Origin: a virus
Strand: one strand, 5' to 3'
Length of the DNA stretch: 64,000 nt
IMG/VR virus record: IMGVR_UViG_3300046780_000464
Location: 12,225-76,224 of that record
The notes below the pieces were generated by a model. It searched no databases and was not told the DNA's origin. It worked only from the letters and a program-made list of their open reading frames with translations. This document shows, piece after piece, positions 30,956-51,542 of the stretch. Numbering within the stretch: the stretch's first letter is position 1; every line of letters starts with the position of its first letter. The position numbers were made by a program, and so were the translations under genes.

Positions 30956-32125
30956 CTAGACACCAATCATTGAGACGACAGCTGCCGGCATCCGCACCAC
31001 TGTGCCCCAAGTACCTGCACTGACCTTCTGAGAGAAGGACGAACGAGCGCGAATAACAGGGTGAGCCCGCATTTTTTCCGAGTACGCCGGAAAGGCAAAC
31101 TTCTGACCTTCAACTTCATTGGCGAACAGCTGTACAAACTCGCCAGCTGCCACACCTTGCGGCATGATTGGTCCACGAGCCGCATATTGCGGGATCGTAA
31201 TCAGCTTGATATTGCCAAAGTTCTTGTCGATCAGGTCACGCACATTGACACCGAAGCTGTTGGTGATCGTCAGGGCGACTTGTGAACCAGGCGACATTGC
31301 CAAGGTCATTGATGTATCCGTGTCGATCAACCCACCGGTCTGCAAGACCAGTTGGTAGAATAGTGTCTCAATGTCGGCATAGACCTCGTTTGCCGTGGCG
31401 TTCATGACCCCATTGATGATCCAACGTGGGCTGTTGCCAGTCGCTGCCTTTGGCGCAGGGCTGAGGGCTGCAGTCAGATTGGGATCATTGGTCATGCCAT
31501 AGTTCTGGAGCCCACCAACACCAAACAGGTAGGCAAGGTTCATGAACTTGGCAATAGTCTGGGCTGCTGCACGATCGATCTCAGATACCCAGTTGACGCG
31601 GGCAAGACCACCGCGCTCTACTTCCCGCTCACCATACTCTTTGATGACCTGGAAGAGGTAGTTTTGCCTAGCCGGCCACCCAACATTGATCCCGGCGTTG
31701 CCGTTCTCATTGTAGTCGCCATAGCTAGACACTTCACCAGTCGCCTCGACGACCGGGAAGTAGATGATGTCTTGCAGCCAATCACCACGCTTGACTTCAC
31801 CACCAAGCGCTTCCGCTGCCTTGTTCGGGCTGAACAAGATACGAAAGACCTCGGGGTCAATAGTCGTAGTAAGCAGGGCGGGGATTGCCGAGTTCGGGTC
31901 AGTATATAGTGGAGGCGGTGCATCCATCGCCATACTATTATGGCCGTATCCACCATAACCCCAAGAATCCTGGGCCATCTGGAGCATCTCGTCCTGGGCC
32001 AGTTGTGGGTTGTTCTTCCAAGACTCCGGCGTGTATGCCGTAATCGCGGGAAGATATACACCACGATTTTCCCATTCCGCACGATCAGCCGACCAGGCAG
32101 CCCGCGCACCACTAAAATTTTGCAT
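30956..32125 (-). CDS. Major capsid protein (DUF2184-like, HK97 fold) with a probably cleaved N-terminal propeptide
   Basis: AMDAPPPLYTDPNSAIPALLTTTIDPEV...KRGDW...FPVVEATGEVSSYGDY...RQNYLFQ...YGEREVERGG; high-GC3 codon use. Confidence 0.92.
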   Translation of the reverse strand: MQNFSGARAAWSADRAEWENRGVYLPAITAYTPESWKNNPQLAQDEMLQMAQDSWGYGGYGHNSMAMDAPPPLYTDPNSAIPALLTTTIDPEVFRILFSPNKAAEALGGEVKRGDWLQDIIYFPVVEATGEVSSYGDYNENGNAGINVGWPARQNYLFQVIKEYGEREVERGGLARVNWVSEIDRAAAQTIAKFMNLAYLFGVGGLQNYGMTNDPNLTAALSPAPKAATGNSPRWIINGVMNATANEVYADIETLFYQLVLQTGGLIDTDTSMTLAMSPGSQVALTITNSFGVNVRDLIDKNFGNIKLITIPQYAARGPIMPQGVAAGEFVQLFANEVEGQKFAFPAYSEKMRAHPVIRARSSFSQKVSAGTWGTVVRMPAAVVSMIGV

Positions 32126-32208
32126 TTGTTCCTCCGGAATAAAGGATTACCGCCTGGTGATCCTTGCGGTAGTTACTGTATTAGTGGTGGGACTAAGCCC
32201 ACCACTTC

Positions 32209-33180
32209 TTAGCCAAGCGGCCAGCTGGACATCTTGATGATTTCGCCTGCCGCACCTGCGCTGGTCGCAAACCACTTGGTCTCAATTGCGTCAGTGGCGC
32301 CAAGAGAAGCAGAGGCAACCACTGTGTTATTGTCCACAGCATAGGTACCAAGGCCACCCGTACCAGTCAGACCGTAGTTTGGGCCCATTGCCGTGATGGA
32401 AGTACCAGCAACAACAGTACCACCCGACAGCGCATCACCAACCTCGATTGGAGTTGCACCGGCGACGGTGACAGTCATCGTACCATAGGTACCAGCAATT
32501 GCTGTGGAGGCAACAGTCTGCTCGGCAATGCTGACTGCATAAGTACCAACACCACCAGGTGTAGCACCACTCAACTGACCGAGAATCCTGGTACCCGTTA
32601 CAACATTGGTACCAGAGATTGTGGAACCAGGTACCACAGAACCAGCCCCAACTGCACTAACAGTCAAGACATTACCAGCAATTGAGCCGGTGGCACTAAA
32701 GGTTGATGCTGCGACCGAACTAGTCACGGTCGCTGCACCCGGGGCAGTACCTGTTGCACCAAATACCACAGCACCATCGCTCAGACGAGCAAAGGCCTTC
32801 ATCCCATACTGGGCATAGGTAGTACCCCGATTGAGAACAAAGAACCCACCAGCCTGATGGAGAGTAATGGGGAAGCCACCGGGGACCAGCATACTGACAC
32901 CACCAAGGTAACTGGTGATCAGGCCCTGCTGTTCACGATGAACAAACCCTGCCGGTGCAATAACACCACCAATAGCGCGGGTGTGAACCAAGGTCGGAGC
33001 ATTGTTCGGGTCGATGATGCTGGCATCAAGCCAACCAAACCGAGCAACAGTCACGCCCTCAGATGCAGCAACCAGCCCACCGGGGCCAGCATCCACGGTG
33101 GCCCGCGGATTGTGGTCGCAAAAGTCACCTTCTACACCAGGTGCCTGTTGCGGATAAACCTGAGCTTGAAACAAAGGCAT
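32209..33180 (-). CDS. Head decoration / cement protein with inserted Ala/Gly/Thr-rich domains
   Basis: FQAQVYPQQAPGVEGDFCDHNPRA...GLVAASEGVTVARFGW...GFVHREQQGLIT; ATG 33180 behind GGAGG; between protease and capsid genes. Confidence 0.8.
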   Translation of the reverse strand: MPLFQAQVYPQQAPGVEGDFCDHNPRATVDAGPGGLVAASEGVTVARFGWLDASIIDPNNAPTLVHTRAIGGVIAPAGFVHREQQGLITSYLGGVSMLVPGGFPITLHQAGGFFVLNRGTTYAQYGMKAFARLSDGAVVFGATGTAPGAATVTSSVAASTFSATGSIAGNVLTVSAVGAGSVVPGSTISGTNVVTGTRILGQLSGATPGGVGTYAVSIAEQTVASTAIAGTYGTMTVTVAGATPIEVGDALSGGTVVAGTSITAMGPNYGLTGTGGLGTYAVDNNTVVASASLGATDAIETKWFATSAGAAGEIIKMSSWPLG

Positions 33181-33219
33181 TGAAACCTCCATATAGTTAC
33201 TAGTACACCACCTCAGGAT

Positions 33220-34917
33220 TTACTGAATAGTGATGTTCTTGGTGAAGTCGAACCGCTCAGCGAACGAGCCACCTTCAATCTTGGCGTCCGCTGCCATGCG
33301 CGGGCCACCCTGATTGGGACGACGGGCGCCGGGGCGAGGCTGCGCTTCAAGCACAGGCAACAAGGCATCCGGATGCATCTTGTCGACCTTCTTGGCGTCC
33401 ATACCGAGTGCCTTTAGGGCGGTACGGTAAACATCGGACGGCCGAGCAGCATCCATGGCCAGGTCACCAACCCAAGGACGAACAAAGCGCTCAGCTGCGC
33501 GAATGTTCTTCTGGGTCTGGACAGTACGAGCAACAGCGCGCTTGATTGCCGCGTCCATTGCCGTCTTTGTCACCGGCTCGGATTGCTCAGAGGGGACGAC
33601 TTCATCCTCCGCTGCCTTCTTTTTGGGATTGCCTTCTTCGTCAAGCTCCTCTTCCTCTTCGTCGCTCACGCAATCTTCGAGCTCGTTCTCGTCCATACCG
33701 CCAATGGCGGTCGGGGGCGGAATTTCACTGGGCATACCTTGATCTCCTCCGTTTCCATTGGGGTCTTTACTCTGTTGCTGCTCACCGCCACCACCACCAT
33801 TGTCAGGAGGAGGAGCGCCGACGCCTCCACTGAGGTCAGGATCAGGATTGCCTTCCTCAGCGAGAAATGCGTCAAGGTTCTGCAAGATCTCGGGCGATAC
33901 CCCTTCTTGCTCAAGGTATGCCTTAATCTTTGCTACAACATCTTCGGGGTCACCATCTTCCTCTGTCTGTGCACCCATAGGCGGCCCAGCATTGGGCTCC
34001 GTCTGCATGGGCGGCGGCCCACCCTGAGGCATCCCACCACCCATCTCAGCATCTGCCATACCAGCAGAAGGAGACAATGCGTCCAAAAGGTTGGCTAAAT
34101 CCTGGATATCAGCATCCTTGGCCAACTTGCCTTTGGTCGCATACTTGACCGTCTTGATGATGTCGGTCTTTCTGCTGTTAAAGTTCTTTGACGTAACTCC
34201 ACGCACAATGGAGTTATAGTCAAGGGGTGCAGCATCTTGAGCGAGGCGCGGTGTGAGATAGGTAAGCAGAGCACCTTTGGCAACCATAGCTGCCGGCGCT
34301 AGTTTCGGCATAGCGGGACTCCTTTCCTTAAGAGCAGCATCTTGGACGACAACATCGGCACCAGCCCTGCCATCCTCTACTAGGGCAACATGATTACCAC
34401 GTATGTTAGTCATAATCCCATCGTAGTGTTGACCCTCATACATACCAGGCTGCATTAAAGGGTCGTAATGGTAAGCACAAGACAGTTCCTTTTGCTCACC
34501 ATCCTCAATTGCGTCAATTGCTGGCTTGGTCCAAAAGACCAAACTATTCTTTAGGTAAGGATGCTGATACATAGCATCAGTACCGGTAGAACCCACTACT
34601 AAATCAGCTGGATGCTTTTCTGAATTAACTGGTTGATGCTTTGCTAAGATTGGCAAGTTATTGAATGTTCTTGCAGCCTTTTGTAGTTCTTTGGGATGCC
34701 TTAACAACCAATACTTTCTAGCGGGGTCAAGACCAAGTCTCTCAAAATCCGGAATCTCTTCACCCCAATATGGATTAACCGTTGCCTTAGATATGTTTGA
34801 CATCCCGACGTGCATATGCCCATCTTCACTAACCCTGCGCACAGATGGGTTTTGATCCATCGCAATAGGACTGGATTGCGACTTGAGTGGGTTAAATGCT
34901 CCAACCATTGCGATCAT
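33220..34917 (-). CDS. Prohead protease (DUF2213-like) fused to an acidic scaffolding region
   Basis: [14 protein letters not shown]...LRHPKEL...FNNLPIL..H...KELSCAY.YD...[12 protein letters not shown]; acidic Gly/Pro-rich C-terminus. Confidence 0.9.
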
Positions 34918-37900
34918 GCGGCAATCCTACGACGGGATGGGACAGATATTGTCCTATTTCCATTACCACCAGATCCACTCGTTCGATTTGGTGCAGTGCC
35001 CATACTTGTTCGACCACCATTTCCATTACCAGCAACAACTAACCTATCAGGGTTATCACTGACTAATATCCTATCAGGTGGTGTACCTGGTATTACACCA
35101 GGAATAGCGGGGAACCAAGCAGCACCAAGAGAGGCATATCCACTAAATGAATCGCTTGTCTCTATTACTTCAAGATCTGCTGTAATCTTATCAACAAAGC
35201 AAGTTGCACTTACTACATTATCATTTTGAGCAAGTCGTAAAGTACCTACAATATTTACAGTACCAGTAGCCGTGATAGTATTTGAATCTTGTATTTGGTT
35301 GAGTGTACCACCAATAACTGCTTCTACGGTGGCAGTGATCGTCTGTGAGGCTTGAATTTCACTAAGTACAGCACCGGTAACAGGACCACCTATTGCGACT
35401 ACAGTATTAGATGCTTGTATTTGATTGAGGTGGCCACTAACAACAGAACCACCTATTGCGACTACAATATTAGATGCTTGTATTTGATTTAATGTACCAG
35501 TAACAACAAGAGGTAACGTACCAGTTGCTGTTAACGTATTTGGTGTCTGTAAAACGCTAAGAGTACCACCAATACCAGAAAGAACAGACCCGGTAGCAGA
35601 TACAATATTTGACGCTTGAAGCTGACTTAATGTACCAGTAACAACAACCACACCAGTAGAAACTATTGTATTGTCTGCTTGTACTCGATTAAGAACGCCA
35701 CTAACAGTGATTGTACCAGTGGCCGTGATTGTTTGTGTAGCTTGAAGCTGACTAAGAACACCACCAACAACCAGACTGCCCGTCGCGACTAAAGTATTTG
35801 GTGGTTGTAACTGGCCTAATGTACCAGTAACGGTTACCCTGGCAACTGCTGATAAAGTATTTGATGCTTGTAGTTGACTTAATATACCAGAAACAACAAA
35901 TGGTACATTACCGGTTGCTGATATCGTTTGTGATGCTTGAAGAACATTAAGAGCGCCACCAATACCAGAAAGAACCGAGCCAGCTGCTACTAAGGTATTT
36001 GGCGGTTGTAACTGACCAAGAGTACCAGTAATAGTGACTCTAGCAATTGCTGATAAAGTATTAGGTACCTGAGCTTGACTTAAGGCACCAGTAACAGCAA
36101 GAGTACCGACTGCTGTTAATATATTTGAGGCCTGAGATAGATTAAGTGTACCTGTAACAGTGATTCTAGCTACTGCTGATAAAGTATTAGGTGCCTGTAA
36201 TTGACTTAGCGTCCCAAGAATGATAACAGTACCAGTGGACGCAATAGTTTGTGGTACTTGTAATGCGGATAGTGTGCCAACTGCTGGGACTGTGCCAGTT
36301 GCCGTTAGTGTTTGATTAGACTGAAGAACACCAAGGGAACCAGTAATACCACTTAGAACAGTGCCAGTTGCTGCCACAATTTGAGCAGCTTGACTTTGAC
36401 TAAGCGCACCACTAACAACAGTACTACCAGTAGCAACCAGAGTATTTGAGGCCTGAGATAGATTAAGTGTACCTGTAACAGTTACTCTGGCAATCGATGA
36501 TAAAGTATTAGGTGCTTGTGACTGGCTTAATGTACCACGTATGGTCACAGTACCAGTAGAGGAGATGGTCTGTGACGTCTGAACAATAGAGAGATTACCA
36601 ATTACTGGAACATTGCCAGCAGCAGTTATCGTATCGAGCGCTTCAATCTGGGAGAGATTACCACTAACACCACTTAGAACAGTGCCAGTTGCTATCAGTG
36701 TATCAGGGCTTTCGGTGACCGATAATGTGCCGGTAATGGCGAGGGGAGCCGTGCCTGTCGCCGACAGCGTGTCGGCAGTCTCGGTGACCGCCAGAGTGCC
36801 AATTATACCAGTATCAGCGATCTGGTAAACCGGTTGCACCGCACCGGGATGCGTATAGTTGGTAACACCGGTTGTCTGCCCCGCCCTGTGCTGCGGGAAG
36901 GCGGGGGGCCAAGCAACAGCTACCAACCCACTGATCGCTGGCTGCACCGCACCCGGTGCGTCAAAATTTGTTACACCTAAACTTTGCCCTGCGCCGTGTT
37001 GCGGGAAGGCTGGGGGCCATGGGGCGACCGCTATCGGAGCCGCTGGACCTTCCGCCGTTGCGACGAGAGTGTCAGAAATCTCGGTAACAGCGAGCGTTCC
37101 GGTTACCGACAGGATCAATACGCCCGTTGCGACGAGCGTATCGGGGGCCTCAATCTTTGTCAGTGTGCCGACATAGGGAGTTCTGCCGGTCGCCGTGACA
37201 GTATCGGGAGCCTCAGTCTTTGTCAGCGAGCCAACATAAGGAACATTACCAGTTGCTGTGACAGTATCGGAAATCTCAGTAACAGCAAGCGTGCCGGTCG
37301 CGGCGGCAACAAAATCAGCGGTGGTGATCGATGAGGTGCCGATACGGAAGAAAACGTTGTCGTTGTTACTCGATCCGGCAGTGGTTTCCTGCCACTCTAC
37401 CTGAAAAAACAGATATGCGTTGTTGAGGACTATCTGTCCTGGCGAGGCGGTAATCGAACTATTTGTGTCGGCGGTAGTTGAGAGCGTGACAGTCGCGCCC
37501 GCCGTATTGGCGATAAGCTGAGTGGCAACGGCTCCGCTAAAGTTAGTTGACCGGTACATCTTCATGTTGACGTGGCCGATACAACCTGCCGTCCCGGCCC
37601 GCATGTTGAAATTGAACGTCCAGGCCGTGGCAGCGAAGGTGCCGGTTAACGGCCCAACGACAAAACAATCACCAGCCGTACCACCACCAGTTCCCGTTCC
37701 CACAGTGGGACCGCTTGTCGAGGCGTTGTAACTGGCGGAAAGAGCGGGATCGGTGCTAGTCGCCGTCGCGCCAAGATGGCCGCGATAATACGGTGTGGTG
37801 ATCGCAGTTTTGGCTGGTGCCCAACCAAAGGCCGAATTAGCTGCGGTCGGCGCTGAACCGTTAAGCTGAGTGTTGCCCCAGAAGTATGGGGTAACCGCTG

Positions 37901-37934
37901 GCGTTCCGAGAAGGTAGATGGTCTGAACAGCCAT
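34914..37934 (-). CDS. 1006-aa repeat fibre-like virion protein
   Basis: Dozens of (V/I)xGxLxxxQxxxT(L/I)xAxG repeats of about 20-22 aa; 40-bp exact DNA repeat at 36122-36161 and 36443-36482. Confidence 0.75.
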
Positions 37935-38188
37935 CAGTCATCTCGCCACTCAAAGCTGAAAGTGCAGCGATCGTAATTCCTAATTTGGTGGGGATGATCT
38001 GGCCACACATTGCAACCGCGCGACCAATAAGTGTTCTGACTGTCGTGTATGGCGCAAAGACGCTGACCGTCCTCTTCACGTTCTAGAAACGGGCAGGCAC
38101 CATCTGGTTGTGCTGGAAGGTTACCGACACCACCCCGGCAACAATCACCGCATTTACAGCATTCGCCAGAGCGGACCCACGCCATCAC
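37934..38188 (-). CDS. YkgJ-like CxxCxxCC cysteine-cluster protein (Zn or Fe-S binding)
   Basis: GECCKCGDCC...CPFL......LCAIH......GCNVWP. Confidence 0.75.
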   Translation of the reverse strand: MMAWVRSGECCKCGDCCRGGVGNLPAQPDGACPFLEREEDGQRLCAIHDSQNTYWSRGCNVWPDHPHQIRNYDRCTFSFEWRDD

Positions 38189-39456
38189 TTTAACTTATAA
38201 TTCTGGGTGGACTGCCCCACATAAGGGTCACTAGACAGTACAACATCGTGTGGATTAGGACTGACACTTAAATAAGTGGTCGTATTGTTGTAGAATGAGT
38301 TGTATTCCATCACTGCCTTAGTTCTATCAATTTGAACAAGCGTACTGGGAGTAGTTACTGCCAACCCTGCTTTACCCACCCCGGTATGATTGGTGATCAA
38401 ATTACCCATGATGGTAGTAACTGGTAATGTCGAGACATCAGTAATATTTATACCATGTCCGGCATTCCCATCTATAGTATTGTTAGCTATAAGGTTTCCC
38501 CAATAGTTCCCGGCTGTGTACACTCCATCTCCACCGTTCTTGGCAATTATACAGTTAATCAGTGCCATACCAGCAGAGACAACTACACCCGGTCCAATAC
38601 AGTCGTGAATATTACAATTTTCGATCATACTTCCTGGATTATTACCAGCAGCAATACCAGCATTATTCTTACCAACACGTTGTGTTACAGACGAAAAGAC
38701 TTCGCAGGAGATTACTGACCCGTTGATGTGACCAATACATGCATCCCAACCGTTCTGATCAAAAACACAACGGTATACTGTGGTGAAATCACACTGAATA
38801 GTTGTTCCCCAATTCCCTCCCGCAACTAAACACAACAAAGAAATTTTTAGATAGGATGAAGCGTAAAACAGCAAACCGGCAGCACCACCTAGTGCATTGC
38901 ACAGTATACAGGCCATACCGCCCGAAGTAGTACCATCGTAACCAGGAGTAGCTGGGTCGGTCGCGTAAGTTATAAATCCATTCGTATTATCCCCTGCAAC
39001 CGGGTTAAAATAGGCTGGTGGCTGGTAGTCATAAACATAGCTAGAATAGTTAGGTATTCCTGACCCTAGAATATAAATTGTATTTCCGGGTACTAATGGT
39101 CCGCTACTCGTTGTATTTGTCCAGAAATCAGCCCAAGCCCCGCCTAGTTGCCAACTGGCACCTGAGAATGTACCTAACGCGCGATCTACTACCACATTGG
39201 AAGCGTTAGTGAAGGCGGTGACGAAGTAAAACCCCTGCCCTGCAATATTGATGGCGTTACCCACCATTGCAGAAGTGAAACCGGACGCGGTAAATGTGGT
39301 GGTTCCGGTAGCGGACCCGTTGGTTCCGCTGGCTTGCGCCGCATCCTGCTGACTGTAATCGGTTCCCGCGCCAGCTATGCCGGGATCGTACCCGCCGCCA
39401 TTGGCATTGTTACCAAGTGGTCTGGCACGCCAAATTGTGGTTAGGTTGACAGCCAT
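38185..39456 (-). CDS. Right-handed beta-helix (pectate-lyase-like) protein
   Basis: Parallel beta-helix repeats IENCNIHDCIGPGV, LINCIIAKNGGDGV, LIANNTIDGNAGHGINI, IMGNLITNH. Confidence 0.75.
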   Translation of the reverse strand: MAVNLTTIWRARPLGNNANGGGYDPGIAGAGTDYSQQDAAQASGTNGSATGTTTFTASGFTSAMVGNAINIAGQGFYFVTAFTNASNVVVDRALGTFSGASWQLGGAWADFWTNTTSSGPLVPGNTIYILGSGIPNYSSYVYDYQPPAYFNPVAGDNTNGFITYATDPATPGYDGTTSGGMACILCNALGGAAGLLFYASSYLKISLLCLVAGGNWGTTIQCDFTTVYRCVFDQNGWDACIGHINGSVISCEVFSSVTQRVGKNNAGIAAGNNPGSMIENCNIHDCIGPGVVVSAGMALINCIIAKNGGDGVYTAGNYWGNLIANNTIDGNAGHGINITDVSTLPVTTIMGNLITNHTGVGKAGLAVTTPSTLVQIDRTKAVMEYNSFYNNTTTYLSVSPNPHDVVLSSDPYVGQSTQNYKLK

Positions 39457-39788
39457 CAGCTAACACTTGAGTTGCCCGGCCCGGTCGCCAGCACGGCAGC
39501 GGCTTGATTGTTCGCCGTGAAGTAATCCGTGTGCATCTGCTGAAGTGTACCAAACAGATTGGTAACTTGTGTGTCGGTCAACTCTGAGCAGCCAGCGAGG
39601 CTGCTCGCATCGTGAATGACGGTGCCTTGTGGCGGGCCGATAATGCCCAAGATGGTACTATTCCAGCCAAGGATCAACGCCTCAATCTGATTCATAACCC
39701 TGAACCACTCGATAGTCGTCGCTCGCTGCATCTGCACGAAATTATGCAGTTGCACCAGTTGCTCTGGAGTTGCGGTTGCTACTGCCAT
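39456..39788 (-). CDS. Hypothetical protein
   Basis: ATG 39788 behind AAGGGAG; helical; GATG coupling to the next gene. Confidence 0.6.
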   Translation of the reverse strand: MAVATATPEQLVQLHNFVQMQRATTIEWFRVMNQIEALILGWNSTILGIIGPPQGTVIHDASSLAGCSELTDTQVTNLFGTLQQMHTDYFTANNQAAAVLATGPGNSSVS

Positions 39789-39801
39789 CGCGGTACTCCC
39801 T

Positions 39802-40185
39802 TTATGCGTTCCCAGCAGTAACACTAAAACTGGTAACGGTCACCGTCTGACCAGACGTAATCGAGGTATTGTTAAGTACAAGATCGGTGGCGACATTCCC
39901 CTGAATATGGCAGGTACCGGCAGCGTCATACATTCGAAAGCTTGAAGCAGTACCAGTTGCAGCGGCACTAACAGTCCAAGCACCAGCAATAGTTGTCACA
40001 CCAGCAACAGAGGTTAGAAAGGTCGCTGGAAGTGCAATCGTTGCCACAGGTCCAGCAGGATCAGCCGCAGTACAGCTCGCTGGCTCGGCACCCGTAAATA
40101 TCTTCAATAAACCAGCTGTGCCGATAGACGTTTGGATTTGGCCAATCTGGTTATTGCGTAAGGCCGTGCCGTATTGAAACGTCAT
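39802..40185 (-). CDS. Small beta-rich virion protein of the type that precedes repeat fibres
   Basis: LRNNQ...IGTAGLLKIFTGAEPA...AAATGTASSFRMYD...IQGNV...LVLNNTSITSGQTVTVTSF. Confidence 0.65.
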   Translation of the reverse strand: MTFQYGTALRNNQIGQIQTSIGTAGLLKIFTGAEPASCTAADPAGPVATIALPATFLTSVAGVTTIAGAWTVSAAATGTASSFRMYDAAGTCHIQGNVATDLVLNNTSITSGQTVTVTSFSVTAGNA

Positions 40186-41949: not shown

Positions 41950-42195
41950 CTATATCTTTCTAAAATGAGGACTTTTCCAACCGGAATCTTCTGCTTCGTC
42001 TTCGTCAGTATCTTCTTCGTCATCTTCTTTATCTTCGTCGTTGTCTTCACTATCATCAGCAACTAACCACTTTATCTCACCATCATCAAACAAGATCTTG
42101 ACTATAGTTGCATCATCACGCTCTGCTGGTGCCATATCTTCATCAAGATATACCACTGATGCAGGACGCCCATCTATTTCACGATGTTCAATCAT
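41950..42195 (-). CDS. Small protein with an acidic tail
   Basis: 81 aa; ATGA coupling to the upstream gene; D/E-rich C-terminus. Confidence 0.65.
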   Translation of the reverse strand: MIEHREIDGRPASVVYLDEDMAPAERDDATIVKILFDDGEIKWLVADDSEDNDEDKEDDEEDTDEDEAEDSGWKSPHFRKI

Positions 42196-44204
42196 TTCTG
42201 TATCTTTGGTACATTCGGGAATCTCTCTAAAATCGCCTTATAAACCTTCTTCCAAGGGTTAGGATCCCTATACCAAATTGGTAAATCTTTCTCGTTCAAT
42301 ATACCTTCCCAATCTAATGCAGCCATTTCAGCTAAAGTCTCATGAATTGGCAATCTAGTACTGGAAGTGTGACCATCCTCGTATGACTTCCACCAATCCC
42401 GACTATAATCAGTCAATCCATCATGCTTCTGTAATGCAGAAGCAGGCATAAGTCCAATTGCGGCATAAGTGGGATAATCCCTGTTGACCTCTTCAATTGA
42501 GAGATCATTAGGATAGATCTCAGCCCTTTTCTTATGGAATTCAGCTTGTTCCTTCTCATATTGTCGCTTAACCGCTTCCCACTTTTGATGCATTACTTCA
42601 TGAGCTGTAACTGCGCAAATAGAGCGACTACTAACGTTCTTTTGATAAATCTTAATAATCCCTGTATTCAGGAAAGCATGACCAGCAACCCTAAACCTAC
42701 GACCATTCAATCTATCGGTTGGCGTTGCCTTGCTTATCTTGATCTTCTTATCAGGATAATCTAATTCCTCAGCGACCAAGCTCTTTACTTCCTTCGCTTC
42801 CTCATCAGTTAAACGATGACTGAGACTAATGGAAGCCTTAGTTGCCATCTCACTAGATTCTTTTAAGTGATCAAACGTATGCTGAAGTTCAGTATCAAGT
42901 TCCTCCGGTTGAATAACCTTCGTACCCTTCCATTCCCTTAATCTAAACTCTGATGGGCGCCCCCACGAACCGCCACTTATATCTATCGCTATATTGGCAT
43001 TCTTAAATGCTTCTATTGTTTGCGCTTCAACGGTATGATAATAACCCATTGGATCAATGATCTGCTTAATCCTTTCCCTTGGAGTTAGAGTCTTCTTCTT
43101 GATTGCCTTTTCTGTTTGCTTTGATTCCGTACCAGTATCTACTGGACCACCACCATGACCATGCACCCTTTGTAAGAATTCCGCAATACCCTTCTGGCCA
43201 ATAATCAGCTTTGAAGGTTTACCTGTGGGTGGCAGATGTTTGATTGCATTGCTATTCCCACTCATTCCGATAAAACCGACATGATGCCCTGTTTCCGGAT
43301 GGTGGTATATTTCTGTTTTAGAGAAATCAGGATGCTCTATATACCCTGCATCCTTCAACTGCTTTATCAATTTAGGTGAAGCACTACCTTTCTTGGCGAA
43401 CTTGCCAGTCTTGTCTCTAGGATGCACTTCTTCTGACCAGGTACCTTCTGGTGCATCATAGGCAAGAAGGTTCGGTAAACGACAAAATAGAAATTGCCTA
43501 AGTGCTGCATCCTGTGCGGGATTCTTGAATTCAGCGTCTTCACCAGGCTCCCGATACCTATCACGCTCGGCCTGTAGTTGATACAATTGTTGAATAATAT
43601 TTGAAGGCATGTTTCGAGCAAGTTCTAAAATATCAGGGTCTAGTGGGACGGGATCTTCGTCCTCTGCAATATCTTTCAACTTCTCTAATGATGCCTTTAC
43701 TCCTGGATGAAGTGGTTCAGGTAATTCATTCAATCCACGCCAAAGATAAGCTGAATGTTCACTGTTTAATGTAGGTTCAAATTCATCCTCTACCGGACAA
43801 GCAAAAGTAGTATGATCCCAACCAAATGGTGTGCGTTTAGTCTCTACTTTAATCCACTGACCATCATCTTCTGGACAATGACCAAGTTCTTCTTCACATT
43901 CACGACGGACCGCATCATACTCACCCTCACCCTCATCAACCTTACCACCGGGCCAGGACCAAGTATCAGCCCAATTTTCTTCTGATGCTGATCGTTTTAC
44001 AAATAGGACCTTATTTTGTGGGGTAAAGAATGCTACACTTGCCGCCTTACCTTTAGGTTCATCCGGGGCTGCATCCCCATAATTACAGCAAACATCTAAA
44101 TCATACTTATCTTTTCTCTGTTTAGCGCTCTCATCAAACGCTAATGACAGGAGCGGCAGCCTTCCAATCAGGTATTCCCTAAGGCCAGTCGTCATCAAAC
44201 TCAC
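42192..44204 (-). CDS. Multi-domain protein: NUDIX hydrolase, linker modules and an HExxH zinc metallopeptidase
   Basis: Nudix box GKVDEGEGEYDAVRRECEEELG fits GX5EX7REUXEEXG; VAGHAF...TAHEVMHQ...HETLAE; HPRDKTGKF tag; probable start ATG 44195. Confidence 0.85.
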   Translation of the reverse strand: MSLMTTGLREYLIGRLPLLSLAFDESAKQRKDKYDLDVCCNYGDAAPDEPKGKAASVAFFTPQNKVLFVKRSASEENWADTWSWPGGKVDEGEGEYDAVRRECEEELGHCPEDDGQWIKVETKRTPFGWDHTTFACPVEDEFEPTLNSEHSAYLWRGLNELPEPLHPGVKASLEKLKDIAEDEDPVPLDPDILELARNMPSNIIQQLYQLQAERDRYREPGEDAEFKNPAQDAALRQFLFCRLPNLLAYDAPEGTWSEEVHPRDKTGKFAKKGSASPKLIKQLKDAGYIEHPDFSKTEIYHHPETGHHVGFIGMSGNSNAIKHLPPTGKPSKLIIGQKGIAEFLQRVHGHGGGPVDTGTESKQTEKAIKKKTLTPRERIKQIIDPMGYYHTVEAQTIEAFKNANIAIDISGGSWGRPSEFRLREWKGTKVIQPEELDTELQHTFDHLKESSEMATKASISLSHRLTDEEAKEVKSLVAEELDYPDKKIKISKATPTDRLNGRRFRVAGHAFLNTGIIKIYQKNVSSRSICAVTAHEVMHQKWEAVKRQYEKEQAEFHKKRAEIYPNDLSIEEVNRDYPTYAAIGLMPASALQKHDGLTDYSRDWWKSYEDGHTSSTRLPIHETLAEMAALDWEGILNEKDLPIWYRDPNPWKKVYKAILERFPNVPKIQK

Positions 44205-45759: not shown

Positions 45760-47247
45760 TTAAAAGACTGGACCACCTTTAGAGATGGTATTCGCCTTGT
45801 TGACCGCGGTAGTTGCACCCTTTACAATACTAGCACCAATACCGTCTCTGGATGGCTTGGGCCTAAGCCTATTTGCTGACTCACCTGAACGTTCAAATGC
45901 TGCACGCTTATTTCCAGCCGCAGTGCGACGCTCTGACGATGACGGTTGATGCGGACGAATAGTTGCCCCTTTTGTAAACTCCTCAGGACTCAGTATTTGA
46001 TGACCACCCTTTTGCGGTCCACTACCTGGACCACCGTCCTTCCCACCAAAGCGAGGACTATTCCAGCCATTACCTTGATTGCCCATCGATCCGCCCTGCA
46101 TGGTATCATCTTTAGACATTAGTGGAGCAGCCTTTCTAATTGCTGCTCTAACAGCATTCTCAGGCCAGGTTGGATGAGCTTCACTCCTTGAAGTACTGGG
46201 GCCAGTTTGGACTGTGGCAACATGACTCCCTACACCACGTCCAATCCCACCCTTGGACAACGACAATGTCGCCCCACTAGGATGCGACCAACTCTCATGT
46301 CCACGTTCATTAGGTCCTGAATAACTAAAACCAGCCTTTGTTGCTTCTTGGTGGGCCTTAGCCAATTGCTTGTTTGCAGGTGCAGATGAGGCAGAGGCAG
46401 ATCCACCACCTTGCGGCCCACTACCTGGACCACCATCCTTTGCCTTTTGAGGTGGAATTGTAGGAGACGACCAACCATTGCCTTGATAACCCATCGAACC
46501 ACCCTTCATGGTGTCATCACGGCTGGTTTCACCAGCAGTATATTTGAGCAAGTTCCCAAGTGCTGTTCCACCCTCACCATTACCAAGAGGAGGTTTCCCA
46601 TTATCGCCAGGATTTCCACTACGAGTACTTGGATCAATCTTTGGACTCTTCCACATACCTGTTGGTGTCATGGGCTTGGAAACGGGATCCTTGGGTACGG
46701 TAACTTCTGGTTTCAAGCTTGCAGCAGAGTCATTTTGACCATCAGAAAACAAAATCCGCATAACGTCATCAATACTGTGTTGATTACCGGTCTGATTATC
46801 AATAACATATTGACCGTCGGGTGACAATGAAAACCGACCATTTTGATCATCTATAGCAGGCTTTTCTTGTCTTTCCCCTATTGCTGTACGAGTATAATAC
46901 GCACCATCCTTTGCCTTTTGTTGCAATTTCCCACCGGGGTCGGCATTCATAAACTCTTTACCAACCGATTGGGGAATGCCAAGTGTAGAATTACCACCAG
47001 CCGCAGCACCCATTGCACCACGTTGCGCTTCACTGACAGGAGGATCCGTTGCCATACCATTCGGATCAGCGTAATGATGCTCCGTTACCGTCTTTACTTT
47101 CAACAGTGGCGGTTGCTCATCATTAGCTTGATCACCCACTTCATCGTGCTCCTCTTCCTCACCCTCTTCATTGATCCAGGACAACAGTCCTCGAGCAAAG
47201 TTTCTCATTTGGCTTAAGAACTCGGGGCTGGTCTGATCGAACGCCAT
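45760..47247 (-). CDS. Gly/Ser/Lys-rich multi-module protein with repeated xxD boundaries (putative internal head polyprotein)
   Basis: AFD, AND, ATD, AKD x2, SRD x2, SKD, GKD; duplicated DDTM(K/Q)GGSMG.QGNGW.SP...KDGGPGSGPQ; 30-bp near-exact DNA repeat at 46012-46041 and 46411-46440. Confidence 0.7.
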   Translation of the reverse strand: MAFDQTSPEFLSQMRNFARGLLSWINEEGEEEEHDEVGDQANDEQPPLLKVKTVTEHHYADPNGMATDPPVSEAQRGAMGAAAGGNSTLGIPQSVGKEFMNADPGGKLQQKAKDGAYYTRTAIGERQEKPAIDDQNGRFSLSPDGQYVIDNQTGNQHSIDDVMRILFSDGQNDSAASLKPEVTVPKDPVSKPMTPTGMWKSPKIDPSTRSGNPGDNGKPPLGNGEGGTALGNLLKYTAGETSRDDTMKGGSMGYQGNGWSSPTIPPQKAKDGGPGSGPQGGGSASASSAPANKQLAKAHQEATKAGFSYSGPNERGHESWSHPSGATLSLSKGGIGRGVGSHVATVQTGPSTSRSEAHPTWPENAVRAAIRKAAPLMSKDDTMQGGSMGNQGNGWNSPRFGGKDGGPGSGPQKGGHQILSPEEFTKGATIRPHQPSSSERRTAAGNKRAAFERSGESANRLRPKPSRDGIGASIVKGATTAVNKANTISKGGPVF

Positions 47248-47353
47248 AGCAAGAGTCCCATAGAGCTCGGTTTCTAGTGGGATGAACGGGTCCTAAGCAG
47301 CTTTGGTATGCGTAGGACCCTTTTACCGCAGTGTACCGCCTAAAAGCCGTCTA

Positions 47354-47470: not shown

Positions 47471-47492
47471 TTGACTTCCTCCTGTTCAACAA

Positions 47493-47984: not shown

Positions 47985-48004
47985 GACCTGATCCTTTCGG
48001 TGGA

Positions 48005-48310: not shown

Positions 48311-48614
48311 ACCAATCCGGTCGATTTAGACTTGGCTTGACGAAGGGTTTCTTACGTGTATCCACCCAATTTTGATAAGCACCAGGTACGCTGCCCGATT
48401 TTCTACTTTTTCGGCGGACATAGTTAACTAACGTCTTTTCCTCACGCAGCCTGGTAATTCGAGTTCGTATACTCCCATACTCTCGATCAAATGCTTTCAT
48501 CAATGCAATAATGACTTTCTTTTGTGTCAACCCTTGTTCCATCCCATCATTTATCGCCTTGATTAGAATTTCGTCTTGTTCTGCTGTCCAAATCGATTGA
48601 ATCCCCTTATGCAT
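48267..48614 (-). CDS. Myb/GcrA-like helix-turn-helix protein
   Basis: IWTAEQDEILIKAI..G....KVIIALM....REYGSIRTRITRL; basic C-terminus; probable start ATG 48614. Confidence 0.55.
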   Translation of the reverse strand: MHKGIQSIWTAEQDEILIKAINDGMEQGLTQKKVIIALMKAFDREYGSIRTRITRLREEKTLVNYVRRKSRKSGSVPGAYQNWVDTRKKPFVKPSLNRPDWFDKENLQERILAGR

Positions 48615-48804
48615 CTTCTTCCTCTGTGGTTTCGGGTTCTTCCACGTCATCCCAATCAAGTTCATCAGGGTCAAAACCCATGATGTCTATCCAGTCTTGA
48701 CTAACTGGAGCATCCTCATCAACCTCTTCCTCCCGCTCCTCGTCAGTTGGCAAATCAGCATGATTGCCATATTCACCATAGGAAGGTTGAGGAAGTGGTG
48801 CCAT
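48607..48804 (-). CDS. Small acidic protein
   Basis: 65 aa, D/E-rich; TAATG coupling to the portal gene. Confidence 0.6.
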   Translation of the reverse strand: MAPLPQPSYGEYGNHADLPTDEEREEEVDEDAPVSQDWIDIMGFDPDELDWDDVEEPETTEEEDA

Positions 48805-51542
48805 TATCTCCAGCCTGAGAACACGATCGGATTAATATACGATCGCAAGGCGACATCTGGTGTATTGCCTAGCTTTTTCGATACTGCCAATGCAACCTGT
48901 TGGCAGGCCTTCTTAAAAGCTGCATCATCACCGGGTGGGGGTGCACGCATCTTTGATATTACTTCGTTTGCAGTCTTGTTAGCAAACAACGTCCTAAAAT
49001 CCTTAGGCTTGCCTAAACCCTTTGTAATATGTTTTGTGTAATCCCGCAAGGATTGATCATTGATCTTCGTGAACAACTTACCCTGATTTTCCCCTGCCAT
49101 CTTGCGCAGAGAGGCGGCAAGTTCGGGATCTTCAACTGGTAAGTTTAACGAGACACCCTTCTTACCTGTAAATCTCAAAAATGTCTTATCCCCCTCAGTC
49201 TTGACAAACTTACCTTGTAATGTAGTCGCACCATAAGCCTGCTTTTCAGCCCCTGTATCTCGTTCACTACCCGGCCTTAGGCCCATCTGCATGATTATAC
49301 CAAGACATGTAGCATGTTCACGGGTTCGACCATCCCAGGCAGTCAAATTCTTATCATTTTCTTCCTTGTACTCCGGCATATGTGGGGTTAACTTTAATTC
49401 AAGCTCAAACTTTTTTGCATCCTGAGAATCTCTGTACTCCTGATGGAATAGTGGTTGAATACGACCCTTAGAGTCTTTACCACCCGCTAGTTGACCCCTA
49501 GCGTTAGGATCCATATTGATTCTAACATCAGTCCAGGCTGGTGGGATCTTAAAGTCTTTGGCATGTTCTGGCCAATCTTCTTTATTGGCCGGAGCAGGAG
49601 TTAGACTGTAATACCCAACGGTTGATTCTTTCTTAGGTTTGGCAGTGGTAGTTGCTTTCTTTGCAGCAGGCTTTGCAGTCTGTGCCTTAGCTGCAGGCTT
49701 TGCTGGTGCGGCGGCTGTAGCTGCCGATGCACCAGAACCTTTACTTACAAACTGACCACCTTTACCACCACTAGTACCTTCAGGTGCATGTGGATGGTCT
49801 TTAGGATCAAAGCCAGCGTCTGCCGCTACCTTAGCATTCAATAGATCAACTAATTTCTGATTATTATCATTACTATTGTCACCAGGAGCGCCTCCGCCCG
49901 GGGCCAGGGGAACAGCCGGTCGTTTAGGAGGCGCTGCACCAGGTGGCCCAGCGGCAGGTGATGGTGGACCACCACCCGGTGGTCCGCCTGGCCCTCCTGG
50001 TTGTGATGCAGCACCTGGTGGTTGTGGGGCACCAGGTACACCAGGAGGCTGTGGTGGAGCAGGAAGTTCTTTTGTTAGGTCTACACCATCAAATGGACTA
50101 TCCGGATCCTGAGCAAGAGAATCACGTACCTCTTGTGGATCAACTGCACCCATACCATAGTAAGTTTCTCTGGTTGCAGCCTTTACTTGCTCTCTCTGAA
50201 CAATCTCTTCAGGCTTCTCTTGTCTTAGTGGCTTAAAGTCAAACGTAATATCATCGTCCACTTCATCAAACTCGCTTAACTGAATAAGGTCAATAATCTT
50301 GGTCAGATTGGGCCGGTACAATACTTCCTGAAATGCCGCAATCCAGTCTTCAAAAGAAACCAGTTCACCCTCGCTACTTGCATTCAATCCAGCAGGCTGA
50401 ATGCCCAACAACTTAACCAGTGGAATACGGGCAATCGCCGCCATATGTTCTTGAGATTGTGCTTGTAAGGAATCCAGTCCACCAAGTGGAGCACTAACAT
50501 TACTAAAATCTTCAGCGTCCTTATCAATGACCATTGCGCCTTGGTTATTCTTGATATTGTTAAATAACGCGACACGGGCAAATAGTGCATCCCCACCCAC
50601 ACCAGTGGTGGCGTCCATATTGGTTTTCAATACACTGTGTGAAAAGTTCTGAATCAAGTCACTGACACTCTGTCTTGTCCTTAACCAATTGTCGACATAG
50701 GGCTTGAGCATTTGAGACATGCTTAACCCGCCAAAAGCATAGGCGGGTTTCAAGATGTCCGGCATTTCTCGACCAACAAATGTCAGCAACCGTGAGCGAT
50801 GTACCTCGCGCGACATTACAAACCAAGTGATTGGGTTATACCAATCAGGGCTCAGTGGATCAACCGAGTCATACCGGGTAGGATAACACCAAGTGGGCTC
50901 TACCGGCAAGACTCTAATCAGCTTTTGCGCTTTACCACTATTTGACGAACCAACCTTCTGTTTACTCAACAGATTGCGACCATCACCTAAATCTAGCCTT
51001 AACTCTTCGTCATCGTGAGTTTTGCCGGTGTCTAGGTATAAATGACCGCGACCAAAGAAACCATCAGCCTCTGTTGCTTTTTGAAATGCCTTTCTAATCC
51101 TAAGGTTGTCCATCTTGTCATTGATTTTCTTGATCTTGTCTGACTTGCTTTCATCACCACTGGCGGCCTTTAACTCAATCCACTCACGAGTCATTTCAGA
51201 AGCAATAACTTCTGTAACCACCCGGTACTCTGGGCGTTGTGATAGACTAGCCAGGTAGGCATAGCCCATAAACACAACGCCTTCAGCATAAGCTGTGGCA
51301 ATAAAGTCTCTGGACGCCCAACCAAAGGTTCCAGATATTGTTTCATCCATCGCCAGTGTTGGAATATCGCGCTCTTTTAGCGCGTTTTCAACTGCTGGCG
51401 GGAAGCTCGGTACTTCAAATGGACTACGAGTTGCTACTGAAGGCCGCCTAATCATGGCTGACTTAGCCAGAACCTCAGACGGTATTATCTTTACCGGGTT
51501 CTTTGTTTCCGATACTTGCTTGAGATCGGTAACTTCAGCCAA
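48804..51542 (-). CDS. Portal protein (DUF1073-like) fused to a C-terminal type IB DNA topoisomerase domain
   Basis: Portal motifs: FMGYAYLASLSQRPEYR...SEMTREWI, PDILKPAYAFGGLSMSQ, IPLVKLLGIQPAGLNASSEGE. TopIB motifs: IPPAWTDV, GKDSKGRIQ, LRPG (R756), FTGKKG (K794), KDFRT (R850), LGNTP (N893), RSYI (Y902). TTG start. Confidence 0.92.
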   Translation of the reverse strand: MAEVTDLKQVSETKNPVKIIPSEVLAKSAMIRRPSVATRSPFEVPSFPPAVENALKERDIPTLAMDETISGTFGWASRDFIATAYAEGVVFMGYAYLASLSQRPEYRVVTEVIASEMTREWIELKAASGDESKSDKIKKINDKMDNLRIRKAFQKATEADGFFGRGHLYLDTGKTHDDEELRLDLGDGRNLLSKQKVGSSNSGKAQKLIRVLPVEPTWCYPTRYDSVDPLSPDWYNPITWFVMSREVHRSRLLTFVGREMPDILKPAYAFGGLSMSQMLKPYVDNWLRTRQSVSDLIQNFSHSVLKTNMDATTGVGGDALFARVALFNNIKNNQGAMVIDKDAEDFSNVSAPLGGLDSLQAQSQEHMAAIARIPLVKLLGIQPAGLNASSEGELVSFEDWIAAFQEVLYRPNLTKIIDLIQLSEFDEVDDDITFDFKPLRQEKPEEIVQREQVKAATRETYYGMGAVDPQEVRDSLAQDPDSPFDGVDLTKELPAPPQPPGVPGAPQPPGAASQPGGPGGPPGGGPPSPAAGPPGAAPPKRPAVPLAPGGGAPGDNSNDNNQKLVDLLNAKVAADAGFDPKDHPHAPEGTSGGKGGQFVSKGSGASAATAAAPAKPAAKAQTAKPAAKKATTTAKPKKESTVGYYSLTPAPANKEDWPEHAKDFKIPPAWTDVRINMDPNARGQLAGGKDSKGRIQPLFHQEYRDSQDAKKFELELKLTPHMPEYKEENDKNLTAWDGRTREHATCLGIIMQMGLRPGSERDTGAEKQAYGATTLQGKFVKTEGDKTFLRFTGKKGVSLNLPVEDPELAASLRKMAGENQGKLFTKINDQSLRDYTKHITKGLGKPKDFRTLFANKTANEVISKMRAPPPGDDAAFKKACQQVALAVSKKLGNTPDVALRSYINPIVFSGWR

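Follow-up and report, generated by a model that had tools for sequence, protein, structure and literature searches.

A hydrophobic-Ala-x-Asp motif as the most likely cutting site of a head-maturation protease in an uncultured tailed phage

Among the head-assembly genes of an uncultured tailed phage, known from an 83.6-kb IMG/VR contig, several encode proteins in which Ala-x-Asp (A-x-D) tripeptides recur, which raises the question of whether these mark sites at which a prohead protease cuts head proteins and the enzymes carried with them. The window, the whole stretch of DNA analysed, comprises 64,000 nucleotides of this contig; all features described here lie on its minus strand and are given in its coordinates. 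An earlier note on this DNA had listed A-x-D tripeptides and sequence tags in five head proteins, all of which are found at the residues given, and had proposed that the protease cuts after A-x-D. An Asp-ending motif is upheld by enrichment, by conservation at fixed positions, by structures solved for relatives and by the fold of the protease, although, judging from the sequences, roughly half of all 31 A-x-D triplets in these proteins are probably non-sites.

A four-residue motif

Shuffling that preserves the composition of each protein predicts 19.2 plain A-x-D triplets in the five head proteins, where 31 are observed (about 1.6-fold, p 0.003). The enrichment that the earlier note had expected therefore exists but is mild: plain A-x-D does not reach the top 8 of 400 X.Y patterns in these proteins, which bears out the note's own warning that position matters more than count. 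[LIMV]-A-x-D, by comparison, occurs 17 times against 3.7 expected (z 6.9) and ranks first of the 400 patterns, the runner-up having a z of 3.1, while in the remaining 105 ORFs it stays at expectation (22 against 20.9). A-x-E is not enriched in the same shuffling test. With all 110 ORFs ranked individually and none selected beforehand, the top three places go to the NUDIX protein, the protease-scaffold protein and the major capsid protein. Judged from the sequence, the informative motif is thus hydrophobic-A-x-D, with A or S as the usual next residue. It is not general to DUF2213, the family of the protease described below, being absent from the DUF2213 phages PC22 (Campylobacter), AHP42 (T1-like) and S-CBS4 (a cyanophage).

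Positional conservation was judged in relatives at 32–57% identity. Triplets that are probably not cut sites, as they lie within folds or are unconserved, are AID133 (absent from the earlier list) and AED436 of the protease-scaffold protein, AED343, AVD466, AKD661 and AWD735 of the portal, and APD46, AID406 and ALD629 of the NUDIX protein.

Capsid and protease-scaffold proteins

The major capsid protein precursor (MCP; 389 aa, phrog_264, PHROG E 3e-53; 30956..32125) contains AQD43-45, AQD51-53 and AMD66-68 and no further A-x-D triplets. Its homologues and the capsid proteins of phages Pa193 and E217 are alignable from about residue 63 on, and the motif stands directly before the capsid-protein fold in 47 of 47 homologous loci; loci L007 and L044 also carry a second upstream site. 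A66, D68 and A69 do not vary among 21 homologues (39–57% identity), whereas AQD43-45 and AQD51-53 (31967..31999), extra sites within the propeptide, show no family-wide conservation. In the family profile AMD66-68 (31922..31930) aligns to A62-M63-D64 of Pseudomonas phage Pa193, and the capsid cryo-EM models of Pa193 and E217 begin at residue 66. The predicted maturation cut, M-A-M-D/A-P-P-P, agrees with these model starts; the authors of the structure papers allow disorder instead of cleavage as the cause of the missing density. Cutting here would divide the precursor into a predicted propeptide (residues 1–68) and a mature protein (69–389). The mature part is depleted of the motif in the 21 homologues (A.D 4 against 26 expected, [LIMV]A.D 0 against 6), a depletion that ranks 4 of 187 patterns among sequences that are related. 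A further gene of the module specifies a minor capsid protein of the XM1_gp53 decoration/cement type, which carries a fibre-like extension at its C-terminus (32209..33192; Pfam PF23982, E 3e-17; PHROG minor head protein).

The protease-scaffold protein (565 aa; 33220..34917) is recognised by Pfam PF09979 (DUF2213, E 1e-45) and as a PHROG head maturation protease (E 4e-109), and consists of a DUF2213 protease domain at about residues 22–228 followed by an acidic Gly/Pro-rich scaffold. The AF2 model (pLDDT 89) has its best fold matches in T4 gp21 (Z 10.4) and VZV protease (Z 9.0), the top Foldseek matches are assemblins, and H94, S146 and H176 are invariant. The modelled fold places the protein among prohead proteases of the assemblin/T4 gp21 type, here fused to a scaffold. 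Apart from AID133, its triplets begin at AMD19, AQD226, AKD266, AED436, AMD453, AMD487 and AAD542, and six of these sites are kept in 26–33 of 33 homologues against a background of 3.9.

Site 1, AMD19-21 (34855..34863), lies directly before the protease fold in 33 of 33 homologues, with A and D invariant within a segment of pLDDT below 50, and in relatives forms the NUDIX–protease junction. Its invariance persists even where only three residues precede it, for which reason it could instead play a structural or pseudosubstrate role and not be cut. Site 2, AQD226-228 (34234..34242; 27/33), marks the end of the protease domain, and in relatives L004 and L005 (90% identical) a split divides the gene shortly before it, at about residues 198–204. 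Further along the scaffold are site 3, AKD266-268 (34114..34122; 32/33, consensus K-L-A-x-D-A), and sites 4 and 5, AMD453-455 (33553..33561; 27/33, consensus K-x-A-M-D-A-A-I) and AMD487-489 (33451..33459; 26/33), both of which recur in PB1, BcepNY3 and Scipio. Site 6, AAD542-544 (33286..33294; 28/33), is about 21 residues from the C-terminus and has equivalents at equal distance from the end in PB1 (KAQD), BcepNY3 (HAMD) and the Acinetobacter phage Scipio (VAMD). The capsid of Pa193 retains merely a fragment of its DUF2213 protein.

Portal, cargo and tags

In the portal-TopIB fusion (48804..51542; Pfam Phage_portal_3 E 7e-75 at residues 95–457, Topoisom_I E 3e-21), a Pro/Gly/Ala linker joins the portal to a type IB topoisomerase (662–893) that matches Deinococcus TopIB 2F4Q (E 9e-17) with the S-Y-I tyrosine motif aligned. 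It contains AMD64, AAD573 and five other triplets. At AMD64-66 (51345..51353), hydrophobic-A-x-D is present in 28 of 28 homologues and loss of a 66-residue leader is predicted; the leader site of PB1 is VAMD74-76, and portal residues 1–93 of Pa193 are missing both from the map and from LC-MS. AAD573-575 and the variant tag DHPHAPEGTSGGKGGQF (582–598) form a junction (49749..49826) predicted to be the release point of TopIB. Similar portal-extension junctions occur in L008, L028, L039, L041, L044 and L060; the tags are degenerate in L036 and L042, and L011 has G-K-D. AQD477 (477–479) belongs to R-x-A-x-D-P-D-S, a crown motif that is conserved but absent from Pbunavirus, and therefore need not be cut.

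The 670-aa NUDIX cargo protein (42192..44204; Pfam NUDIX E 1e-17) is ordered as a short leader, the NUDIX domain (52–170), a linker, a tag and a C-terminal region with HEVMH535-539. Besides three other triplets it contains the candidate cuts AFD22-24, AED180-182, AQD230-232 and AYD248-250 (43455..44141), all outside the NUDIX fold, and D24 and D250 follow alike leaders (R-L-P-x-L-x-L-A-[FY]-D). In L009, L010, L019 and L047 a site, IAADM or VANDM, directly follows NUDIX. Given the junction motifs and the fusion architectures of relatives, release of both TopIB from the portal and NUDIX from its neighbours is plausible. The peptidase that had been proposed as further cargo fares less well: HEVMH fits HExxH and the language-model neighbours of the protein include zincin-like peptidase clusters (scores 0.91–0.94), but nothing else points to it and a Pfam search of the protein finds no peptidase domain.

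The 495-aa protein (45760..47247) is mostly disordered (Atlas model pLDDT 0.49), with triplets at AFD2, AND41, ATD66, AKD112, AID131 and AKD269. Its short modules comprise an EEEEH leader (8–34), ATD66-68, PPVSEAQR...GIPxxVGKEF (69–103) and two repeats ending in [AG]-K-D/GGPGSGPQ, the GGPGSG tag lying at 272 and 405. The 69–103 module is the N-terminus of NUDIX–protease fusions in relatives.

The tag HPRDKTGKF (NUDIX protein 261–269; 43398..43424), 11 residues past AYD250, is part of a module widespread among viral contigs. This module, [FW]xE[SH]EHPRDxxGKF, is found in two settings, behind an Asp or at the beginning of ORFs in the form M-A-E-[FW]-x-E-S, and the PPVSEAQR module likewise stands behind L-A-T-D or opens an ORF in the form M-P-x-x-S-E. 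In both, Met and Asp share one position, and the register of the predicted cut is therefore fixed after Asp. Among 104 tag copies from diverse phages, 35 have Asp at the aligned position, 12 of them with Ala at P3. Cargo placement is interchangeable in relatives, which have NUDIX–protease fusions, portal–NUDIX (BcepNY3), portals of up to 1631 aa and enzymes other than NUDIX fused to the portal; PHROG families exist for such cargo fusions.

Known systems and competing explanations

Pbunavirus (PB1, E217, Pa193), Naesvirus (Bcep781, BcepNY3) and Obolenskvirus (AP22, Scipio) share the gene order of the window (portal, DUF2213 protease-scaffold, decoration protein, phrog_264 capsid) and carry the motif at matching positions, and BcepNY3 is annotated as having a portal–NUDIX fusion besides its prohead protease and nested scaffold. 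Identity to these phages is only 23–48%; the window phage differs in its larger genome, its extra cargo genes and the insertion, between its portal and protease genes, of glycosyltransferase and fibre-like genes, and PB1-like phages lack site 1. The structure papers do not identify the protease motif, and the XM1 authors proposed another protease. Herpesvirus assemblin and HK97-type prohead proteases share the fold of DUF2213, with undetectable sequence similarity, and are likewise linked to a scaffold, cleaving themselves and releasing it. Assemblin cleaves at [VL]-x-A/S.

T4 gp21 (5JBL), with which the DUF2213 protease has its common fold at Z 10.4, cleaves by the rule [LI]-x-E. It trims the capsid protein, breaks down the scaffold and also processes proteins that are packaged and later injected, among them the capsid-targeted internal proteins IPI-III and Alt (PMC9026906 and established knowledge). 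The same functions are predicted from sequence in the window phage, and both motifs place an acidic residue two positions past a defined one. The window protease, however, belongs to another sequence family (DUF2213/COG3566), is fused to its scaffold, and would prefer Asp rather than Glu at P1, with Ala at P3 and a hydrophobic residue at P4; moreover, the T4 targeting sequence precedes the cut and is removed, whereas the window tag follows the predicted cut and would remain on the product. The phiKZ gp175 and SPN3US gp245 motif, [SAG]-x-E, has a small P3 and acidic P1 too and was determined by mass spectrometry, whereas the present one is derived computationally; according to the abstracts of PMC10052503 and PMC7411985, many head and ejection proteins are cut there at several sites. 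These phages use Glu where the window phage, in which A-x-E is unenriched, has Asp, and the window phage is far smaller, with enzyme cargo fused to the portal.

The conserved motif might instead serve assembly or binding, capping helices or making contacts among the scaffold, the portal and the inside of the capsid, with missing N-terminal density due to disorder. The invariance of site 1 behind a three-residue leader, the structural appearance of portal A-x-D-P-D-S at 477–479 and the latitude left by the E217 and Pa193 authors speak for this. We nevertheless consider it unlikely, as the motif recurs across unrelated contexts and predicted-disordered segments, falls exactly at module junctions that are ORF starts elsewhere and is depleted in the mature capsid protein, the Pa193 portal leader is undetected by LC-MS, and the product of the neighbouring gene has a protease fold, relatives of which cut at x-x-acidic sites.

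It is more doubtful still that another enzyme cuts these sites, either a host protease or the C-terminal region with HEVMH in the 670-aa protein acting as a polyvalent-protein metallopeptidase. An HExxH motif and peptidase-like neighbours exist, and processing of polyvalent proteins by zincin-like peptidases is proposed in passages of Iyer et al. 2017 (PMC5512222); yet among the loci examined the HEVMH part has a homologue solely in the near-identical L058 while the motif is in all, the remaining matches of the protein cover the NUDIX domain only, Pfam recognises no peptidase in this part, and DUF2213 is the component common to all loci. Least credible is a by-product of Ala-/Asp-rich linkers and shared ancestry. 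Plain A-x-D is indeed not a top pattern, the scaffold is rich in Ala, Asp and Glu, and relatedness inflates the conservation and depletion statistics, but the extended motif keeps its z of 6.9 against composition-preserving shuffles, A and D stay fixed between variable flanks at 32–57% identity, and positions are shared with Pbunavirus at about 25% identity.

The head-maturation protease most likely cuts at hydrophobic-Ala-x-Asp; as a cleavage motif this sequence is computationally well supported, and it appears undescribed in the searchable literature, where no mature N-termini of relatives were found published. We infer both the cutting and DUF2213 as the cutter from sequence. Packaged enzymes fused to portal or protease are not a new idea: passages of Iyer et al. 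2017 and 2022 (PMC5512222, PMC9503650) describe NUDIX, InPase and 2H phosphoesterases fused to portal, MuF or a capsid-processing serine peptidase, with BcepF1 portal-InPase as an example, and predict packaging and injection. Those passages propose metallopeptidase autoprocessing rather than a cleavage motif, and do not mention a portal-TopIB fusion or junction modules.

Taken as a whole, a head module in which a DUF2213 prohead protease cuts after hydrophobic-Ala-x-Asp and separates the cargo is the explanation we consider probable. Inside the assembled prohead, the DUF2213 protein would cut after the Asp, usually before Ala or Ser, removing the 68-residue propeptide of the capsid protein and the 66-residue portal leader, freeing the protease domain and reducing the scaffold to six or seven pieces. 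The same cuts would split TopIB from the portal and NUDIX and the possible metallopeptidase from their linkers, and yield peptides of the 495-aa protein. The cargo would stay in the head and then enter the host, and the HPRxxxG[KQ]F module may serve as an address or docking tag on the mature N-terminus.

The A-x-D motif in the head proteins

An earlier note had listed A-x-D triplets and accompanying tags in five head proteins of the window, namely the 389-aa major capsid protein, the 565-aa DUF2213 protease-scaffold, a 912-aa portal that carries a type IB topoisomerase (portal-TopIB), a 670-aa NUDIX protein and a 495-aa protein. Translation places all of these triplets and tags where they were listed, although some further triplets within folded domains had been omitted. 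By number, the enrichment of the plain triplet is weak, with 31 occurrences in the five proteins against 19.2 expected from composition-preserving shuffles, and A.D lies outside the top eight when 400 X.Y patterns are ranked by enrichment. Alignment of capsid homologues pointed to a longer motif in which a hydrophobic residue precedes the Ala and the Asp is often followed by another Ala (φ-A-x-D, with a predicted cut after the Asp, P1). When [LIMV]X.Y was scored for all 400 X,Y pairs as an unbiased test, [LIMV]A.D alone stood out in the five head proteins (17 versus 3.7 expected, z 6.9; runner-up pattern 3.1), and the remaining 105 ORFs contain about as many copies as expected (22 versus 20.9). 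The extended form [LIMV]A.DA occurs 7 times in the head proteins against 0.4 expected and once elsewhere against 1.9. Following these scans the plain triplet was dropped as a statistic in favour of the four-residue motif. A ranking per ORF, made with no prior choice of proteins, puts the NUDIX protein, the protease-scaffold and the capsid protein as the top three of 110 ORFs. No enrichment of A-x-E, the T4/phiKZ-type motif, was found in the head proteins.

The motif is conserved at defined positions. In the capsid protein, [LIMY]-A-x-D-A-Q-P stands immediately ahead of the conserved fold in all 47 full homologues, the 20-65 residues upstream of it diverging freely, and A66, D68 and A69 never vary among 21 aligned sequences of 39-57% identity. 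A hydrophobic-A-x-D likewise precedes the conserved fold of the portal in 28 of 28 homologues, and portal triplets within the fold persist in no more than 4-5 of the 28. Against a background of 3.9 of 33 homologues per position, the protease-scaffold keeps the motif at D21 (site 1) in all 33, at D228 in 27, D268 in 32, D455 in 27, D489 in 26 and D544 in 28 (sites 2-6); at D135, within the fold, and D438, in an acidic low-complexity tract, it is kept in 7 and 10 respectively. Phages PB1, BcepNY3 and Scipio (an Acinetobacter phage) all share sites 4-6 as well as the sites in capsid protein and portal. The motif is absent from three other DUF2213 phages, Campylobacter phage PC22, T1-like AHP42 and cyanophage S-CBS4, and therefore marks one large DUF2213 clade; its extension to all DUF2213 phages is ruled out by these three.

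Mature capsid regions of the 21 homologues contain four A.D where 26 are expected, and [LIMV]A.D, with an expectation of 6, is missing from them. This scarcity fits avoidance of self-cleavage, and it is treated as supportive, not decisive, since the sequences are related and the depletion is matched by that of three other patterns.

Two occurrences outside the main set deserve mention. A V-A-M-D-A in the 152-aa ORF at 20908-21366 was rejected as a cut site; by its Pfam match (E 7e-29) this ORF encodes a tail assembly chaperone, and chance probably explains the V-A-M-D-A. Four ORFs start with M-A-x-D where about one is expected (7428-10190, MALD; 16290-17744, MADD; 29500-30342, MASD; 45760-47247, MAFD), probably through chance or start-context bias.

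The head module, its protease and its cargo

The window belongs to an 83.6-kb IMG/VR viral contig with an estimated completeness of 75%, and megablast found no close cultured phage at the DNA level. Its capsid protein and protease are 35-53% identical to those of Aeromonas, Klebsiella, Burkholderia (Bcep781 group), Acinetobacter (Obolenskvirus) and Xanthomonas myophages, and more distant from Pbunavirus (~23-27%). In two scans, viral contigs yielded 60 related loci. The genes between 54898 and 30956 are all on the minus strand, the first of them a weak terminase-like match at 53267-54898; this presumed large terminase is taken to be divergent because its Pfam GpA_ATPase match reaches only E 0.005. 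It is followed by the portal-TopIB fusion, small ORFs, the 495-aa protein (45760-47247), two more ORFs, the NUDIX protein (42192-44204), a glycosyltransferase/FkbM methyltransferase, a set of small ORFs with a beta-helix protein and a 1006-aa repeat protein, the protease-scaffold, an XM1_gp53-type decoration protein and the phrog_264 major capsid protein, which ends at 30956. The stretch between the cargo genes and the protease (34914-41944) is an unusual interruption of the head module, holding the glycosyltransferase/FkbM methyltransferase fusion, the right-handed beta-helix protein, small ORFs and the repeat protein, which is rich in Thr, Ser and Gly. Adjoining the beta-helix gene, an 84-aa Cys-rich ORF at 37934-38188 (C-C-K-C-G-D-C-C ... 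C ... C) has no family match.

The protease matches DUF2213 (PF09979) with 156 bits against a cut-off of 22, over profile positions 2-166 of 167, and the PHROG head maturation protease family phrog_2229 (E 4e-109); GenBank annotates the gene in relatives as a prohead or head-maturation protease, with a nested scaffold gene also annotated in BcepNY3. An AlphaFold model (AF2) of the protease domain, built from 34 sequences, has a mean pLDDT of 89. Exhaustive structural comparison of this model returned T4 gp21 first (Z 10.4, rmsd 3.1 over 129 residues) and the varicella-zoster (VZV) protease second (Z 9.0), and Foldseek ranks 1-33 are exclusively herpesvirus assemblins or gp21. The enzyme is thus predicted to share the assemblin-like beta-barrel fold of T4 gp21, HK97 gp4 and herpes assemblin. 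The candidate catalytic residues H94, S146 and H176 (full-length numbering) do not vary across the 34 sequences, and site 1 sits in a low-confidence segment right before the first strand. When the protease domain was modelled in complex with capsid residues 36-100, the score was 0.08 against a mark of 0.32, which speaks neither for nor against binding. In L005 (4480-5112) and L004, two 90%-identical related contigs, an insert between the protease domain and the scaffold divides the protease-scaffold gene in two; the 210-aa reverse-strand ORF found there starts M-Y-I-I-Y-E-I-P-G-K-K-V-G-C-T and is possibly a GIY-YIG-type homing endonuclease.

The portal matches Phage_portal_3 (PF06381) over residues 95-457 with 252 bits against a cut-off of 33.8. 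Its TopIB part matches PF01028 (E 3e-21) and Deinococcus TopIB (2F4Q, E 9e-17), with the L-G-N-T-P...S-Y-I tyrosine motif aligned. The NUDIX domain is a clear Pfam match (PF00293, 64.5 bits against a cut-off of 21.1), and a Nudix-box-like G-x5-E-x7-R-E-x-x-E-E-x-G can be read in the translation. The same protein carries a putative peptidase, for which no Pfam match was found and which is suggested by an HEVMH motif and by language-model neighbours, including zincin-like clusters, at 0.91-0.94. With regard to the definition of polyvalent proteins (Iyer 2017), the NUDIX domain and the HEVMH region lie in one polypeptide, the likeness of the latter to a peptidase coming from language-model features only. 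At residues 8-24 and 234-250 of the NUDIX protein, two similar leaders (L-R-E-Y-L-I-G-R-L-P-L-L-S-L-A-F-D and L-R-Q-F-L-F-C-R-L-P-N-L-L-A-Y-D) precede two candidate cuts, a pair that looks as if a propeptide had been duplicated. The 495-aa protein is largely disordered by prediction and belongs to no recognised family; Pfam at relaxed thresholds gave nothing credible for it or for the small ORFs that separate the portal from the cargo genes.

Junction modules and the register of the cut

Many relatives join a short module, NUDIX, protease and scaffold in one ORF, with A-x-D at the joints. In BcepNY3 the NUDIX domain is fused to the portal, in other relatives the portal is 660-1631 aa long and carries various extensions, and PHROG contains families for portal-NUDIX and portal-protease fusions. 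Two short modules recur at such junctions. The P-P-V-S-E-A-Q-R...G-I-P-x-x-V-G-x-E-F module follows M-A-T-D in the 495-aa protein of the window and L-A-T-D in the related loci L011 and L038, and it opens the ORF, as M-P-x-x-S-E, in NUDIX-protease fusions. The tag module, HPRxxxG[KQ]F, stands a few residues (6-20) after the Asp at portal and cargo junctions and at the start of a free-standing ORF in L011. In both modules Met and Asp are in an equivalent position, as expected if cleavage after Asp recreates the N-terminus otherwise made by translation, and on this alignment of modules the cut would be fixed after the Asp. As a separate observation, an acidic leader, [DE]-W-x2-L-x3-F-x2-W-x2-E-E-x2-E-P-E-H, recurs right before A-x-D in NUDIX-protease linkers (related loci L009, L015 twice, L019, L052 and L060) and at the protease N-terminus of Scipio (L064), with a variant in the 495-aa protein of the window (47146-47226).

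The tag, found in the window at 43398-43424 and 49749-49799, is part of a widespread [FW]-x-E-[SH]-E-H-P-R-D-x-x-G-K-F module followed by Gly/Ser-rich sequence. A degenerate DNA scan of viral contigs for E-H-P-R-D-x-x-G-K-F returned at least 118 stretches in 104 distinct contexts. Across IMG/VR (L068-L184, at least 104 distinct contexts) the module either opens an ORF or comes behind an Asp, in some cases a Lys or Arg. All copies have [FW] at −4 and 94% have Glu at −2. Position −7 is most often Asp (35 copies across the 104 distinct contexts), with Asp at −6 or −8 in 24 more, and several ORFs start M-A-E-[FW]-x-E-S-E-H-P-R-D, which puts Met at −7, the place of the Asp. Among the 35 copies with Asp at −7, Ala is the commonest P3 residue (12) and P4 is Leu, Ile or Val in 14. 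No relevant paper in the literature searched mentions the tag. On a far-reaching reading, this module would serve capsid-packaged proteins of many unrelated phage lineages as a general N-terminal address tag, exposed by translation start or by prohead-protease cleavage; it would dock cargo to the portal or the capsid interior and form with φ-A-x-D a portable two-part loading cassette. We regard this as rather unlikely.

Agreement with structures of relatives and known systems

The capsid-family profile matches the Pa193 capsid protein (9B40) at E 7e-37, aligning the invariant A-x-D to A62-M63-D64. The cryo-EM models of the Pa193 and E217 capsids both begin at residue 66, two residues past the Asp; the E217 authors suggested either cleavage or disorder for the missing N-terminus. 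In the PB1 capsid protein (382 residues) this aligned site is the single A-x-D. The Pa193 portal model begins at residue 94, residues 1-93 not having been found by LC-MS, and the PB1 portal has V-A-M-D at 74-76. Only residues 286-326 of the Pa193 DUF2213 protein (scaffold-like gp24) are visible in the capsid, a fragment between two A-x-D sites that is compatible with the motif, though not tightly. In XM1, the first 30 capsid residues are without density, and its authors did not identify the protease, tentatively proposing a Spartan-like one. The preprint on phi24B has no bearing on this comparison, since its capsid protein is uncleaved. The literature searched, which did not extend to a 2006 Bcep781 paper that may hold N-termini, contained no cleavage motif for the DUF2213 protease family, nothing on its cleavage specificity and no usable N-terminal sequencing for Bcep781 or PB1.

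The system resembles those of T4 ([LI]-x-E), phiKZ and SPN3US ([SAG]-x-E) in its assemblin-fold protease and in a predicted cut after an acidic residue in capsid, scaffold and putative packaged proteins. It differs from T4 capsid targeting, where an N-terminal peptide before the cut is removed, whereas the conserved HPRxxxG[KQ]F here comes after the Asp and starts ORFs when free-standing; leaders ahead of the candidate cut sites do exist, but they are not common to the proteins. Packaging and injection of enzymes fused to the portal, MuF or a capsid-processing peptidase is an idea already put forward in PMC5512222 and PMC9503650. What is new is an Asp motif, specific and conserved in position, for a DUF2213 clade to which cultured therapeutic phages belong, the portal-TopIB arrangement, and the recognition, from sequence comparison, of a predicted cut and downstream tag as a recurring junction cassette.

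DUF2213 proteases account for 687 records in the phage collection searched and occur in hundreds of cultured phages, including the therapy-used Pbunavirus and Obolenskvirus. The proposed cleavage rule is concrete and directly testable on existing phages, perhaps with existing mass-spectrometry data. It would account for several cryo-EM puzzles, namely the capsid start at 66, the portal without its first 93 residues and the gp24 fragment in Pa193, and would supplant the Spartan-like protease tentatively proposed for XM1. It would also turn the published prediction of packaged enzymes into a defined set of predicted mature proteins for which mass spectrometry could search and, if the tag is an address signal, site and tag together would provide a handle for loading proteins into phage heads.
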